In this document: in pieces, positions 40,348 to 45,515 of the stretch
Layout: each line of letters begins with the position of its first letter
How positions within the stretch are numbered: the stretch's first letter is position 1
DNA from: an uncultured Alphaproteobacteria bacterium
Lineage (GTDB): Bacteria > Pseudomonadota > Alphaproteobacteria > Rs-D84
Assembly (NCBI GenBank): GCA_944390835.1
Contig: CALXQT010000010.1
Location: forward strand, 583-64,582
Length of the DNA stretch: 64,000 bases
Direction of reading: 5' to 3'
Translations under genes and position numbers: made by a program
The notes under the pieces: generated by a model
Told to the model about the DNA's origin: nothing
Database searches by the model: none
Seen by the model: only the letters and a program-made list of their open reading frames with translations

Positions 40348-41289
40348 TATTTTATTTGCAGAACCCATAATATTTTTTATTTCATCGATACAATTTTCGT
40401 ATATGTTTTTCTTCCCAGCACCAAGGTAGTCACGAGGATTAAAATTATCTGGTTGTTTTGTCATTGTTTCTCGTATTCCTGCGGTAAACGCAAGACGAGA
40501 ATCACTGTCTACGTTGATTTTGCAGATGTTTTTTTTAACTGCTCGCTTTAGTTGTGATACAGCAATACCGCGTGCGTTAGATATTTTGCCCCCGTATTCG
40601 TTTATGGTTTTTACAAAGTGTTGAGGTATGCTGGATGCGCCATGCAATACAAGTGGAAAGTCAGGAAGTTGTTTTGCAATATCGTCAAGAATATCAAAAC
40701 GTAATTCTTCGTCATCGCTTTTTCGCTTATATGCGCCATGACTGGTGCCAATTGCAATTGCTAAAGAGTCTATATTCGTCGCGTTTACAAAGTTGACAAC
40801 GTCATCTGGATTGGTATAGCTAGAAAAGTCTGACTTTGTGCGTTCGTCTTCTATGCCAGATAAAACCCCGAGTTCTGCCTCTACTGATACGTCATATTGG
40901 TGGGCATATTCGACCACTTGTTTTGCCAAAGCGACATTAGATTCAAACGGTAATTTTGATCCGTCAATCATAACACTTGAAAAACCAAGTTTTATCGCAT
41001 TAACGCAAGATTCAAAAGAAGAACCATGATCCAAGTGCAGTGCGACACGGTTGCTGTCTTTTAAATTAAGTCCCCATATCATACCACGTAATAAATCTGA
41101 GCCCATGTATTTTAAAGCAGACTCTGATACAGCAAGAATAACGGGGCTGTTTGTGTCGTGTGCGGCCTCGATTATTGCTGCAAGTGTTTCCATATTATAG
41201 AAGTTAAATGCTGGTATCGCGTAATGATGTCTCAGCGCGTCCGCAAACATTTGTTTCGTATTTACCAAGCCAAAATCTTTATAGTCCAT
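40345..41289 (-). CDS. fba: Class II fructose-bisphosphate aldolase
   Basis: YAIPAFNF, LHLDHGSS, VMIDGS, HGAYK and LVLHGASS motifs. 314 aa. Confidence 0.9.
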   Translation of the reverse strand: MDYKDFGLVNTKQMFADALRHHYAIPAFNFYNMETLAAIIEAAHDTNSPVILAVSESALKYMGSDLLRGMIWGLNLKDSNRVALHLDHGSSFESCVNAIKLGFSSVMIDGSKLPFESNVALAKQVVEYAHQYDVSVEAELGVLSGIEDERTKSDFSSYTNPDDVVNFVNATNIDSLAIAIGTSHGAYKRKSDDEELRFDILDDIAKQLPDFPLVLHGASSIPQHFVKTINEYGGKISNARGIAVSQLKRAVKKNICKINVDSDSRLAFTAGIRETMTKQPDNFNPRDYLGAGKKNIYENCIDEIKNIMGSANKI

Positions 41290-41391
41290 TTGCTTATCCC
41301 TTTGTACATTTTGTATAAAAATTATAACACAATATATATGTTGGTGCCCTAAATTTTTATTAGGAAAAATCGCCTATATACAAAGCAATAC

Positions 41392-41420
41392 TTGACAAAG
41401 TTTATTTTTTCGTCTATATT
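41392..41420 (+). promoter_or_regulatory. Sigma70-type promoter (TTGACA-N17-TATATT)
   Basis: ttgaca at 41392-41397, a 17-nt spacer, then tatatt at 41415-41420. Confidence 0.55.
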
Positions 41421-41466
41421 TATATACGAATAAAATAAACAACGCAAAAGCGAGAAAGTAACGTAG

Positions 41467-41622
41467 ATGGTTCAGAAAAAGTATGTTTTTTATGTTTTGT
41501 CTGGTAATGCGCCAGATTGGCCGCCATGTGACGTTGGTGTCATTATCGGCGGGGGGGACAGTAATGTTTTTTTGCCTGAAACGTTGATTGTAAAAGATGC
41601 TTTTGTGTTAAAAGATCAATAA
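41467..41622 (+). CDS. Small stand-alone transcription unit: a 51-aa ORF, or alternatively a ~220-nt sRNA
   Basis: Hand translation: MVQKKYVFYVLSGNAPDWPPCDVGVIIGGGDSNVFLPETLIVKDAFVLKDQ. It has its own promoter (41392-41420) and terminator (41623-41650). The RBS is weak. It contains a G7 tract at 41551-41557. Confidence 0.3.
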   Translation: MVQKKYVFYVLSGNAPDWPPCDVGVIIGGGDSNVFLPETLIVKDAFVLKDQ

Positions 41623-41650
41623 AAAGCTCGGTTTTTTTCCGGGCTTTTTC
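41623..41650 (+). terminator. Rho-independent terminator
   Basis: agctcgg-ttttttt-ccgggct hairpin (one G-U pair) followed by tttt. Confidence 0.65.
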
Positions 41651-41702
41651 GCTTTTGTCAGGAAAAAATCTTGATAGGACGCATAACAAATAGAGGACAA
41701 AA

Positions 41703-42176
41703 ATGAAATTTAAAAACGTTGTATCTTTTAATATAAAAAGGGTTGTTCCTATATTAGGATTGGCTGGTGCCACCATGTTTATGGGGGGGTGCGAGAAAGA
41801 TGATAATGGTCCAACACGAGATGTTGAGATAAGATTTACACAGAAGGAAACAGACGATTTATTTTATGACGACGAAAATGATGTGCGTCATCCAAGTATC
41901 CTTGCGCAAGAGTACGTAAAAGATCCGACAATAAGGACAATATATTTAGTACCAGAAGGTACTTGGGCCAATATGGATCGAAATGGAATAAAAGGAATGC
42001 GCACAGCAACGTTAGACCTAATTATGAACTATTCTCCGAAATTTCGTGGTAAGGGCGATTTTAACTTCATGGTAGGAGAAGCTTCAAAAATCCCCGAAGA
42101 TAGTTTGTGGTATGTATCTAAAGGCTGGACGATAAATAAAAGATTATTGGAACAAGCTCAACAAAATCAGCGATAA
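41703..42176 (+). CDS. Tandem-paralog lipoprotein 1 of 3 (unknown family)
   Basis: Lipobox-like FMGGC. Conserved blocks DDLFYDDEN.VR.PS..AQEY, TIYLVPEG.W, SPKFRGKGDF, PEDSLW.VS.GWTINK. 157 aa. Confidence 0.75.
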   Translation: MKFKNVVSFNIKRVVPILGLAGATMFMGGCEKDDNGPTRDVEIRFTQKETDDLFYDDENDVRHPSILAQEYVKDPTIRTIYLVPEGTWANMDRNGIKGMRTATLDLIMNYSPKFRGKGDFNFMVGEASKIPEDSLWYVSKGWTINKRLLEQAQQNQR

Positions 42177-42188
42177 AAGGAATAAATA

Positions 42189-42662
42189 ATGAAACTAAAA
42201 CAAATAGTGCCATACAATATAAAAAAAATTATTCCTATGTTGGGGTTGGCTGGTGCCACCATGTTTATGGGCGGCTGTGAAAAGACGGAAGAGCCCCAGC
42301 AACGAGATGTAGAGATAACCTTTGCATATAAAAGTTATGACGATTTGTTTTATGATGATGAAAACGGGGTTCGTTATCCAAGTCTTAAAGCCCAAGAATA
42401 TGTAAATGACCCAACAGTAAGAACAATATACTTGGTACCACAGGGAAGTTGGGAAATTTATAACCGTTTTTCTATAACTGGAATGCGCGAAAAAACTCTT
42501 GAAAAAATTTTGGATTATTCACCTAAATTTCGCGGCAAGGGGGATTTTGATTTTAAAGTTGGTGAGGCCTCAAAAGTACCAGAAGACAGTTTATGGTTTG
42601 TATCCAATGGTTGGACAATAAATAAAAGACTATTAGAACAAAGTCAGCAAAATCAACGATAA
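42189..42662 (+). CDS. Tandem-paralog lipoprotein 2 of 3
   Basis: About 65-70% aa identity by eye to paralogs 1 and 3. Same length and lipobox. Confidence 0.75.
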   Translation: MKLKQIVPYNIKKIIPMLGLAGATMFMGGCEKTEEPQQRDVEITFAYKSYDDLFYDDENGVRYPSLKAQEYVNDPTVRTIYLVPQGSWEIYNRFSITGMREKTLEKILDYSPKFRGKGDFDFKVGEASKVPEDSLWFVSNGWTINKRLLEQSQQNQR

Positions 42663-42679
42663 ATTAACGGAGTACAAAA

Positions 42680-43147
42680 ATGAAATTTAAAAACGTTGTA
42701 TCTTATAATATAAAAAAGCTTGTTCCTATATTAGGATTGGCTGGTGCCACCATGTTTATGGGGGGCTGTGAAAAAACAGACGAAACCCCAAAAAGGGAAG
42801 TGGAATTAACTTTTGAACAAAATAGGTTTGATGATTTGTTTTATGATGATGAAAATGGTGTGCGTCGTCCAAGTCAAAAGGCTCAAGAATACATAGATGA
42901 TCCAACTGTTGGTACAATATATTTAGTGCCAGAAGGAAGTTGGCTTAACTTTGGTGAAATTGGTATTCACGCTTTACGTGAGCATGGTCTTGAACCTGTT
43001 ATGAAATATTCACCGAAGTTTCGTGGTAAAGGAGATTTTCGTTTTTCTTTAGGGGTCGCATCAACCATACCAGAAGACAGTTTATGGTTTGTATCCAATG
43101 GTTGGACAATAAATAAGTATGTGTCATCACAAACTAATCATAGATAA
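42680..43147 (+). CDS. Tandem-paralog lipoprotein 3 of 3 (mosaic: 5' end like paralog 1, 3' block identical to paralog 2)
   Basis: The first ~87 nt are nearly identical to 41703-41790. The 47-nt block 43080-43126 is identical to 42579-42625. Confidence 0.75.
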   Translation: MKFKNVVSYNIKKLVPILGLAGATMFMGGCEKTDETPKREVELTFEQNRFDDLFYDDENGVRRPSQKAQEYIDDPTVGTIYLVPEGSWLNFGEIGIHALREHGLEPVMKYSPKFRGKGDFRFSLGVASTIPEDSLWFVSNGWTINKYVSSQTNHR

Positions 43148-43148
43148 T

Positions 43149-43174
43149 AAATCCGGCATAATGCCGGATTTTTA
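43149..43174 (+). terminator. Rho-independent terminator after the paralog array
   Basis: aaatccggc-ataat-gccggattt hairpin plus T-run. Confidence 0.85.
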
Positions 43175-43238
43175 ATAAATTGACACTTTTGTTAAAAACG
43201 TGTAAAAATATAATTGATTAGTGGGAGATTTTTTCCAA

Positions 43239-44516
43239 ATGAAAAAAGTTATTATTTTCGCAGTAAGTATATGTATGGTTTTTATAACTAATGGTTTCGC
43301 TGATGATAACTCGCAAGTAACAGCTTGTGGTGCGCCAGATGATATAAATATGTGCGGAATGGGGTGTGAGTATGTATCTTTTAGTAAATCTTGTCAGCTG
43401 TGTCTTGAGGGTACATATAACAGTCAGGATTTAGCGTCTGAGTGTATCAATTGTTCCATCCCGGCAGGGGGGACGCCTTTAATTGGTGATGAGTATATGG
43501 GATTTATTGAAGATTCTTGCCCGTGGAAGGCAACTTGCACAAAATACCAATATTGGCAGCCTAAAGATACGAATTTGGTTCAGTGGGGCTGTCTAGATTG
43601 TGGAAAAGGATACGAATCTTCTTTAAAGGACGGATATGATGTTTATGGAAGAGGACCAGAGGCGGAAGATGCTAGTGGTCATAGTTTTGATGAGGTTTGT
43701 GATGGCATGATATATACATTAAACTTATTGGCAAACGATGGTGGCTTTGATGATCCAACTTTAGAGGGTGTCAGAGAGGAAAAGAACCTATATTATAAGT
43801 ACGATAATTATTTTTCTGCAGATGAGGCGCCTGAAGAATGGTCAACAGGGGCATTGCCAGATGGGTTCCTTCAGCCCTCCAGTATTCTTAAGACCTTCCT
43901 TGGTTATGGTTTATCTGAGGAGAACTGTAGTAACGGACATTTAGCCTTTGACTCGGAAGGTATTTTTTCGTTTTATGGAAAAGAAAACATATTGGAGTAT
44001 GTAGATGAACTTACCGGTAGTACTATTTCTTTACAAGCTTGTTGGTACAATAATTCAATTACTATTAATTATAATTATGGAGGTGCAGCGGGTAACACAA
44101 GGGAAACATGTGGTTTTAAATATAATAATGATGAATTTTTTGAATGTAAGGTAAATGATGAAATAGTAAGTGTAGATGGATTGGTTTTTGAAGGATACGA
44201 ATGTACTTATATCAAGGATGGAAATACCGTCAATTGTTATGAAGACGGCAAATTGCTGACGTATGATGAACAAATTCCTATTTTGGCACAAGAAATGTCT
44301 TTAACGGCAATATTTTCAGATTGTCCTGCTGGCTATTATTGTGGTGAAAGCGGTATAACAAAGTGCCCGATCGGAACAACAAGTAACCCTGGAAGTACCA
44401 GTATAGAGAAGTGTTTCATGAAGGCCGGAACGGATGGGACTAGGTTTTGCGACAATAACGGTTGCTTCTTTTTACCGGGTAGTTTTACAATTCCTTATAT
44501 GTCTAATAATCAATAA
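43239..44516 (+). CDS. Cys-rich secreted protein with terminal eukaryote-type Cys repeats (GCC2/GCC3- or TNFR-like) and central Listeria-Bacteroides-type repeats
   Basis: Signal ..NGFA/DD. CQLCLEGTYNSQDLASECINC and CPAGYYCGESGITKCPIGTTSNPGSTSIEKC. Central ..YTLNLLANDGG.. and ..ITINYNYGGAAG..FEGY.. repeats. Confidence 0.5.
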   Translation: MKKVIIFAVSICMVFITNGFADDNSQVTACGAPDDINMCGMGCEYVSFSKSCQLCLEGTYNSQDLASECINCSIPAGGTPLIGDEYMGFIEDSCPWKATCTKYQYWQPKDTNLVQWGCLDCGKGYESSLKDGYDVYGRGPEAEDASGHSFDEVCDGMIYTLNLLANDGGFDDPTLEGVREEKNLYYKYDNYFSADEAPEEWSTGALPDGFLQPSSILKTFLGYGLSEENCSNGHLAFDSEGIFSFYGKENILEYVDELTGSTISLQACWYNNSITINYNYGGAAGNTRETCGFKYNNDEFFECKVNDEIVSVDGLVFEGYECTYIKDGNTVNCYEDGKLLTYDEQIPILAQEMSLTAIFSDCPAGYYCGESGITKCPIGTTSNPGSTSIEKCFMKAGTDGTRFCDNNGCFFLPGSFTIPYMSNNQ

Positions 44517-44628: not shown

Positions 44629-45015
44629 ATGAAAAAAGTTTTAGTTTCTGTAATCGCATTGACATCTTTGGCTGGTTGTGGTGCATATTATGATTATTAT
44701 AAGGGTGGTGTAAGATATACCCAAGACGGTCAAGATTGTATTTATTATGCTGGTGAATATGGCCGTAATTTCTCCCGTGATATTAGAGGGTTGAATAACG
44801 GTAAAAAAATAGTTTACCGTAATACACGCTGTGAAGATTTGTATGCGATGGATAATTTTGGTCAGGAACCTCGTCATGATCGTCAGATTTTAGTTCCTGC
44901 TGCACAAGAAGTTTCATGTAATTCATGTTCACGTGTAGAAAAAGTTTCTTGTGATTCTTGCAGCAAGGTACAACCAGTTTTGAAACGCAGATATGTTATC
45001 GTTCCTGCTATGTAA
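44629..45015 (+). CDS. Small lipoprotein with a Cys-repeat C-terminus
   Basis: Lipobox SLAGC. CNSCSRVEKVSCDSCSKV. 128 aa. Confidence 0.55.
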   Translation: MKKVLVSVIALTSLAGCGAYYDYYKGGVRYTQDGQDCIYYAGEYGRNFSRDIRGLNNGKKIVYRNTRCEDLYAMDNFGQEPRHDRQILVPAAQEVSCNSCSRVEKVSCDSCSKVQPVLKRRYVIVPAM

Positions 45016-45128: not shown

Positions 45129-45515
45129 ATGAAAAATTTACTGAAAAAATTAGGTTTTGCAGGATTTACAGTTTTATCTGGTGTATCTGTCGCTTTGGCT
45201 GCAGGACCTGTTGTTGGTGGTGTTGGGGTTGATGAATCCGGATTGTGTGCCTTGATATCACAAATGTATGGCGTGTTTCAAATTCTGCGTACATTAGCTT
45301 TCGTTGGCGCTGCATTTGTTATAGCCAATTGGGCGTGGGGTTATATTAAAGATGGTGGCCCTAAGGACGGTATTTTAGAAGACCTGAAGAAAAAAGGTAC
45401 GGCTTTGTTAGTTGGATTCGTCTTGCTGTTCGGTATTGGGGTTATATTATCTTTCTTCCTATCTTCGACCGGTCTTGGAATGATTGGCTGTGAAGGGGTT
45501 ATTAAAAGTTGGTAA
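45129..45515 (+). CDS. Small exported two-helix membrane protein with TrbC/VirB2-pilin-like topology
   Basis: RBS aaagggga. Signal ..SVALA/AG. Two hydrophobic helices are separated by the charged loop KDGGPKDGILEDLKKKG. 128 aa. Confidence 0.3.
   Translation: MKNLLKKLGFAGFTVLSGVSVALAAGPVVGGVGVDESGLCALISQMYGVFQILRTLAFVGAAFVIANWAWGYIKDGGPKDGILEDLKKKGTALLVGFVLLFGIGVILSFFLSSTGLGMIGCEGVIKSW

Follow-up and report, generated by a model that had tools for sequence, protein, structure and literature searches.

A tandem array of predicted lipoprotein genes from an undescribed family, remodelled between strains and linked to a cysteine-rich exoprotein gene, in the gut genus Candidatus Enterousia

Tandem lipoprotein paralogs that share a conserved 5' segment and undergo gene conversion are already known. 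In the Vlp family of Mycoplasma hyorhinis, the Vsp family of M. bovis and the Vsa family of M. pulmonis, tandem lipoprotein genes of a host-associated bacterium with a reduced genome carry a conserved 5' signal segment, form chimeras between copies, and have homopolymers in or near their 5' ends. Short conversion tracts and 5'/3' chimeras that differ between strains are also found among the babA/babB/babC genes of Helicobacter pylori and the opa genes of Neisseria, and both babB (CT repeats) and opa (CTCTT) have frameshift-prone repeats within signal-peptide codons. The acquired interbacterial defence (orphan immunity) clusters of gut Bacteroidales consist of arrayed genes for small proteins that are targeted to the envelope and whose folds are unknown; their distribution is patchy, and they are transferred between gut taxa. 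Likenesses to all of them are seen in an array of three predicted lipoprotein genes at positions 41703–43147 of a 64,000-nucleotide (nt) stretch of contig CALXQT010000010.1 (the window, whose coordinates are used throughout) from an uncultured gut bacterium of the genus Candidatus Enterousia; the domain, its fold, the cysteine-rich (Cys-rich) neighbour and the leader unit of this array are undescribed. The explanation we tentatively prefer, with somewhat less than even confidence, is that outer-membrane lipoproteins dock or present the Cys-rich exoprotein encoded downstream, and that their array is remodelled by homologous recombination.

The paralogs are designated p1, p2 and p3 in 5' to 3' order, their signal segments s1–s3, their bodies b1–b3, and the 12- and 17-nt spacers between the genes sp12 and sp17. 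The array and the hairpin that follows it are as follows.

41703–42176, + strand: paralog 1 (s1 + b1), open reading frame (ORF) of 157 amino acids (aa); family hidden Markov model (HMM) E = 3.8e-70
42189–42662, + strand: paralog 2 (s2 + b2), ORF of 157 aa; AlphaFold model with mature-domain pLDDT (predicted local distance difference test) >90
42680–43147, + strand: paralog 3 (s3 + b3), ORF of 155 aa; family HMM E = 1.4e-66
43149–43171, strand not assigned here: hairpin terminator after paralog 3, 10-bp stem running into a T-run

The spacers read AAGGAATAAATA (12 nt) and ATTAACGGAGTACAAAA (17 nt), and the paralogs share 65–70% aa and 70.5–71.3% nt identity in pairwise comparisons. As some of the T-run sits within the stem, the scan placed the hairpin on the minus strand; the element reads as a bidirectional terminator. 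Each N-terminus begins MK(F/L)K...IKK and continues to PILGLAGATMFMGG-C, giving a basic n-region, a hydrophobic h-region and a lipobox, and residues 16–32, P(I/M)LGLAGATMFMGGCEK, are common to all three. The sequence F-M-G-G-C is compatible with the PROSITE-type lipobox rule, and its Cys is invariant among 82 homologs. LspA (118.6 bits), Lgt (227 bits) and LolA (92.7 bits) are all encoded in the genome at scores above the Pfam cut-offs, and the three genes are predicted to encode Lgt/LspA-type lipoproteins, which would be lipidated and presumably located in the outer membrane. The possibility that their signal peptide is shared with other lipoproteins of the genome was rejected, as tblastn matched only the three array copies. 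These results agree with a preliminary description made from the nucleotide sequence, which had listed three same-strand genes of 155–157 aa with 12- and 17-nt spacers, a terminator after the third, and a common signal peptide and lipobox; every conserved block that it quoted is present in the alignment.

By sequence and model comparison, the lipoproteins appear to form a previously undescribed, single-domain alpha/beta family whose predicted fold has no solved relative. They had been suspected of belonging to an unrecognised family, and searches of Pfam and NCBIfam (E up to 1) and of PHROGs and PADLOC (E up to 0.1) gave zero matches, as did searches of PDB sequences with phmmer and with an 82-sequence profile (E <= 10). 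An AlphaFold2 model built from the 82-sequence alignment has a pLDDT of 93–98 over residues 41–140 and depicts a compact alpha/beta domain; this one domain (pLDDT >90) makes up the mature region, and the alignments contain no internal repeat. The structure search that had been recommended, run with Foldseek on this confident model, found nothing significant in the PDB (best E = 0.075, top listed TM-score 0.42) or in the viral library BFVD (best E = 0.061), and a phage origin is therefore without support. The family is a clean case of a confidently folded domain with neither sequence nor structural relatives in these searches. In one homolog, P0240, the domain follows straight after the lipidated Cys and precedes Big-like (E = 9.5e-10) and Big_2 domains, an order that places it as a membrane-proximal base for extracellular modules. 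The C-terminal domain of P0240 gave a weak Lcl_C match only (E = 0.019, below cut-off) and no match in the PDB.

The most conserved part of the domain is a near-invariant C-terminal face, SPKxRGKGDFxFxxGEASKVPEDSLWxVxNGWTINK. Residues S111, K113, D119, S128, D133, S134, W136, W142 and N145 are invariant, fall in one contiguous block and are kept in Alistipes, as might be expected of a small, housekeeping-like envelope enzyme or ligand binder that acts on peptidoglycan, lipid or glycan through a Ser/Lys/Asp/Trp cluster, with ordinary paralogy and incidental gene linkage. The weak top Foldseek matches are to chains of the Ser/Lys signal-peptide peptidase SppA, but they are not significant (E >= 0.075, TM 0.2–0.28). 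The family is not housekeeping, since 18 of the 37 Enterousia species lack it, as do all 24 genomes sampled from other genera of the order, and the linkage to a Cys-rich gene is too consistent for coincidence. Of the explanations considered here, an envelope enzyme is the least probable.

The linked gene and its promoter-like site lie beyond the terminator.

43180–43209, + strand: promoter-like site of the Cys-rich gene, found by scan
43239–44516, + strand: Cys-rich secreted protein of 426 aa; start taken as the ATG at 43239, in agreement with homolog P0319, and the ORF is open from a GTG at 43221

A first survey found a Cys-rich gene directly downstream of the lipoprotein genes, on the same strand, at 19 of 23 loci, and in a wider survey a signal-peptide protein with 18–61 Cys residues was encoded directly downstream at 39 of 58. 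At the 44 loci that have an ORF of any kind downstream, the gap to it is mostly between 0 and about 150 nt. The loci that lack the Cys-rich gene include those of Alistipes, other Bacteroidales-labelled loci, L103, and contigs that end just past the array. The Cys-rich protein is 85% identical to its counterpart in the nearest strain, but its identity falls to about 33% at the level of the next species, where the lipoprotein keeps 45–70%. Its last ~60 aa have a consensus kept in 39 species (CPAGYYC-x-CPxGTTS-x-DCY-x-GTKFCDxxGCFxLP-x-I-Y), and the remainder falls to about 30% identity. The Pfam family Ephrin_rec_like is matched by 9 of the 11 aligned homologs at E up to 0.1 (best 6.1e-06); it is also the sole Pfam match of the window protein, at a score under the cut-off, and searches of this protein against NCBIfam, PHROGs and PADLOC returned nothing. 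The middle region has motifs that by eye resemble Listeria–Bacteroides repeats (KYDxGF...LKTFLGY...ACWE), with no confirming Pfam match. A genus-wide cassette that pairs a conserved, new-fold lipoprotein with a fast-evolving, eukaryote-like Cys-rich exoprotein is candidate contact machinery. Enterousia is a widespread uncultured gut lineage with genomes of about 0.8–1 Mb (the genome of the window is 816 kb, 38% GC and 91% complete), and members of this genus (order Rs-D84) lack most biosynthesis and have been proposed to depend on partner cells (PMC12306168).

Small tandem genes with variable copy number, a patchy distribution (19 of 37 species) and transfer into gut Alistipes would also suit a periplasmic immunity-type lipoprotein array, orphan or cognate, directed against a toxin of gut neighbours or against the Cys-rich protein, with the copies covering toxin variants. 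This had been one hypothesis of the preliminary description, and we now consider it very unlikely. Pfam scans found no toxin domain in the array neighbours or the Cys-rich protein, searches of the neighbour against NCBIfam, PHROGs and PADLOC likewise revealed no recognisable toxin domain, and no mobile-element genes were found flanking the array. The lipoprotein genes lie upstream of the large protein gene, not downstream, and the C-terminus of the partner is conserved, although this is the variable end of polymorphic toxins. Conservation is far stronger in the lipoprotein than in its partner, whereas an immunity protein that determines specificity should co-vary with the partner, and the fusion of P0240 to immunoglobulin (Ig)-like extracellular domains is ill-fitting. 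The array differs from the orphan immunity clusters of gut Bacteroidales on the same grounds: it has no recombinase or mobile context and no recognisable effector link, its lipoprotein is more conserved than the neighbour, and an Ig-like fusion exists.

The three genes of the window are mosaic at the DNA level, and two sets of shared segments are relevant.

41760–41785, 42246–42271 and 42737–42762, + strand: 26-nt box TTGGCTGGTGCCACCATGTTTATGGG, identical in the three copies, at the signal/body boundary; exact matches at these three positions only
42577–42625 and 43068–43116, + strand: 49-nt tract identical in p2 and p3, over the PEDSLWFVSNGWTINK codons; permutation p = 0.0011

Across the first 87 nt, p1 and p3 agree at 83 positions, bearing out the earlier proposal that paralog 3 is a chimera with a 5' end near-identical to that of paralog 1. 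The identical block of p2 and p3 is real as well, but it is 49 nt long rather than 47, and the position first given for it in p3 (43080–43126) was about 10 nt off; p1 differs from both at 9 informative sites within this tract. Informative sites split 53/50/53, making the three copies equidistant overall, but they fall in marked clusters along its length, with p1 = p3 at the 5' end, p2 = p3 over the PEDSLWFVSNGWTINK codons and p1 = p2 in the 3' tail. The longest concordant runs are of 9 sites each (p = 0.0008 for p1 = p3 and p = 0.0011 for p2 = p3, by permutation of site order), and third codon positions alone give p < 0.00005 (p1 = p3) and p = 0.00095 (p2 = p3) by permutation. Synonymous divergence is about 0.11 in the signal segment of p1 and p3, and above 1 elsewhere. 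Since the overall synonymous rate (dS) exceeds 1, the copies are old, and the mosaic segments are conversion tracts laid on old duplicates. The 26-nt box is a putative crossover site, as the switch between signal segment and body in strain contigs falls there.

Remodelling of the array can be traced between natural strains. The genome of the window and two other assemblies (L047 and L048) carry the identical order s1b1-sp12-s2b2-sp17-s3b3, while a lineage about 95% identical to these in the flanks has leader-s3b2-sp17-s3b1-sp12-s2b3, followed by the Cys-rich gene. Of the rearranged junctions, leader-s3-b2 was found in three samples and b1-sp12-s2-b3 in four. The bodies are 94–98% identical between the two orders. 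The alternative order s3b2-s3b1-s2b3 means that the modules b1-sp12-s2 and b2-sp17-s3 exchanged places. The tail of b2 has been converted to the p1 type in the rearranged lineage, and in two of its samples (L044 and L045) the leader hairpin has been lost with a 51-bp deletion between GCTTTTGT repeats. The order leader-s3-b1 in L045 may be an assembly path through the repeated s3 segment, and only two configurations were robustly seen. Significant tracts and strain reordering thus uphold the recombination first proposed within the array, although to call it ongoing was an overstatement given a dS above 1 and just two robust configurations. A further difference is the A8 run at 42220–42227, in the signal-peptide codons of paralog 2 (s2), which is A7 in two independent assemblies of the rearranged lineage (L111 and L112) and there frameshifts the gene carrying the s2 segment. 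The run is a candidate slip-strand on/off site, and resembles the frameshift-prone repeats of babB and opa. Phase variation at G-tracts was dropped as a main point, as the G7 run of p1 is constant in all three assemblies that carry it; the genome as a whole has 25 G/C runs of 7 or more, against about 11 expected.

In the family tree, tandem copies group by genome in at least eight lineages, and the triplet of the window forms a clade (support 98/93) whose sisters are single-copy relatives. Such clustering indicates repeated amplification or homogenisation; some copy pairs are position-specific orthologs, so older duplicates persist too. Some relatives (P0249, P0285 and P0172) have the domain two or three times in tandem within one polypeptide, and one locus (L089) has two tandem genes of 290 aa, each encoding a double-domain protein. 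These multi-domain relatives mean that amplification has occurred within genes as well as between them.

A conserved 5' signal-peptide segment joined to diverged bodies, with body order and signal segments that differ between strains, an out-of-frame A7 in two assemblies and a leader hairpin missing from two others, could also be read as the signature of stand-alone variable surface lipoproteins in the manner of Mycoplasma Vlp and Vsp, whether exposed antigens or phage- or partner-facing surfaces, with the Cys-rich gene a mere neighbour. The identity and the amount of the variant produced would then depend on recombination at the conserved 5' box, on slippage in homopolymers and on whether the leader terminator has been lost. 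The residues after the lipobox Cys (EK, then a short Asp/Glu-rich stretch) resemble the acidic surface-export signal of Bacteroidota lipoproteins, and the Alistipes copies have CSKEEP. Variable surface lipoproteins were put forward in the preliminary description, and are still viable as an explanation, but the proposal needs amending for the downstream Cys-rich exoprotein, to which it made no connection, and which is a near-universal neighbour that it leaves unexplained. We consider it unlikely. The mature part is a conserved globular domain under purifying selection (omega, the ratio of non-synonymous to synonymous rates, of 0.11–0.22) and is not built of repeats, its most conserved part of about 40 residues is almost invariant across two phyla, the two robust configurations and the constant p1 G7 tract give little variation, and neither window ORFs nor domain scans revealed a recombinase or invertible element adjoining the array.

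The comparison with the Mycoplasma families is therefore mixed. A conserved 5' segment runs across the tandem genes, as seen in the 26-nt box and the match at 83 of 87 nt between p1 and p3. There is no sequence or fold relationship, however, and the Enterousia mature part is a globular alpha/beta domain under purifying selection, whereas short variable repeats make up the Mycoplasma proteins; neither the alignments nor the model showed short tandem repeats in the mature region. The Enterousia array also differs in its lack of a site-specific recombinase and in having a Cys-rich gene downstream, and a promoter poly-A switch is not shown. The two array orders and the A8/A7 difference were seen between assemblies. 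The bab and opa products are beta-barrel or adhesin outer-membrane proteins encoded at dispersed loci, while those of Enterousia are small lipoproteins encoded in one tandem array with a single homopolymer variant (A8/A7).

Under the docking explanation, the lipoprotein would be anchored in the outer membrane, and its conserved C-terminal face would dock, hold or present the downstream-encoded Cys-rich protein, probably through the conserved C-terminal module of the partner (CPAGYYC...CPxGTTS...GTKFCDxxGCFxLP). The N-terminal strand and the long helix, which are more variable, would differ between copies. Tandem amplification would have occurred repeatedly in different species, with homologous recombination or gene conversion acting at two conserved DNA segments, the 26-nt box in the signal codons and a 3' box; exchange at these would swap signal segments and bodies and reorder the bodies between strains. 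Transcription would start at one strong promoter and pass through a leader ORF to a hairpin that probably gates read-through. In this scheme gene anatomy, family novelty, distribution, Cys-rich linkage, mosaicism and strain rearrangement are observed, and we infer lipidation, outer-membrane location, partner binding and attenuation.

Several points weigh against docking, the main ones being the partnerless copies of Alistipes and the terminator before the partner gene. The Alistipes copies stand alone, with no Cys-rich neighbour, so that the target of the conserved face may be something shared by the two phyla rather than the partner. In the window paralog 3 is followed by a hairpin, and beyond it the Cys-rich gene has a promoter-like site of its own, so that co-transcription is not assured there. 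The structure model of the Cys-rich protein is of low confidence (pLDDT 48, from an 11-sequence alignment), which bears on the proposed binding, and it is not obvious why one adjacent partner should need three anchors. Array configurations were read from short metagenome contigs, some of low coverage. A more elaborate proposal, which we regard as doubtful, is that the lipoprotein and the exoprotein constitute an undescribed two-part surface system of gut bacteria with minimal genomes and a dependence on partners, in which a conserved, lipid-anchored dock of new fold captures the conserved, disulfide-rich C-terminal tail of a hypervariable adhesin, recombining tandem dock copies give alternative presentation geometries or specificities, a leader-peptide attenuator gates expression, and the dock has passed between gut Alphaproteobacteria and Bacteroidota.

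Searched with a profile, 1.84 billion representatives yielded 265 clusters of the family. It is present in 19 of 37 species genomes of Enterousia, at 0–4 copies per genome, and in 0 of 24 sampled genomes from other genera of the order Rs-D84; the survey of related genomes that had been proposed thus did find variable copy number. One homolog is annotated as Candidatus Enterousia intestinigallinarum, and many of the matching genome records name Enterousia. A pattern scan of species genomes also matched metagenome-assembled genomes (MAGs) labelled Bacteroidales, and most of these matches are identical or near-identical to Enterousia contigs and have an Enterousia-type signal, for which reasons the contigs are taken to be misbinned. 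Examples are the Bacteroidales-binned lipoprotein genes that are identical or near-identical to those of Enterousia MAGs in the comparisons L064 vs L065, L100 vs L101, and L084/L088 vs L086, which are likely to be binning contamination in public MAGs.

A different picture is given by Alistipes sp. HAN006 (L091–L097, L104, L108 and L110), the clade that was checked in detail among the Bacteroidales-labelled matches. It has at least five full, dispersed copies with differing neighbour genes, a Bacteroidota-type signal (CSKEEP) and a GC content of about 56%, and its copies form one clade nested among Enterousia sequences. This looks like genuine cross-phylum transfer. The 3' halves of the copies are up to 100% identical over 83–127 nt, at contig ends where further 3' fragments are found, which points to homogenisation or recent spread in Alistipes. 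Apart from this clade and a single, tentative Prevotellaceae-labelled match (L098), all occurrences of the family are in the gut genus Candidatus Enterousia.

Variation within the protein is concentrated in the long helix at residues 89–109, where the three paralogs are 14% identical. Mean column entropy across the family is 2.55 bits for these residues, compared with 0.81 for conserved residues 110–146. The ratio of non-synonymous to synonymous rates (dN/dS) between paralogs is about 0.5–0.7 in the helix, on saturated dS, and relaxed constraint therefore accounts for it no less well than diversifying selection would; saturation also makes the three paralogs, taken by themselves, unsuitable for formal tests of selection and recombination. 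The earlier suggestion that a single surface patch had diversified in this array was not sustained, as the helix is variable family-wide. A sign of lineage-specific constraint or homogenisation is that residues 51–65, though variable in the family, are 87% identical within the triplet.

Upstream of the array is a short unit with the following elements.

41392–41420, + strand: promoter-like site TTGACA-17-TATATT, 11/12 match in the scan
41467–41622, + strand: leader ORF of 51 aa with the core SG(G/N)xP(D/E)WPPC, upstream of the array in at least eight species-level genomes
41621–41649, + strand: hairpin and T-run abutting the leader stop codon, found by scan; candidate attenuator or terminator

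The -35 element of the promoter-like site and its surrounding bases are invariant in an alignment with three other genomes, and pairing in the leader hairpin is retained through a compensatory change in L006. The core SGGxPDWPPC varies mostly at third codon positions, which indicates that the leader ORF is coding, and a riboswitch or small RNA was rejected on the same evidence. A scan of positions 41250–43300 against Rfam gave only sub-threshold, terminator-like matches. Promoter, ORF and hairpin are together kept ahead of the array in at least eight Enterousia species, and the unit looks like a leader-peptide attenuator. On the other side of the array, the Cys-rich gene is followed by a gene for a Cys-containing lipoprotein of 128 aa (44629–45015) and one for a small membrane protein with two helices (45129–45515); neither has a family match, and both are syntenic in L006 and L046.

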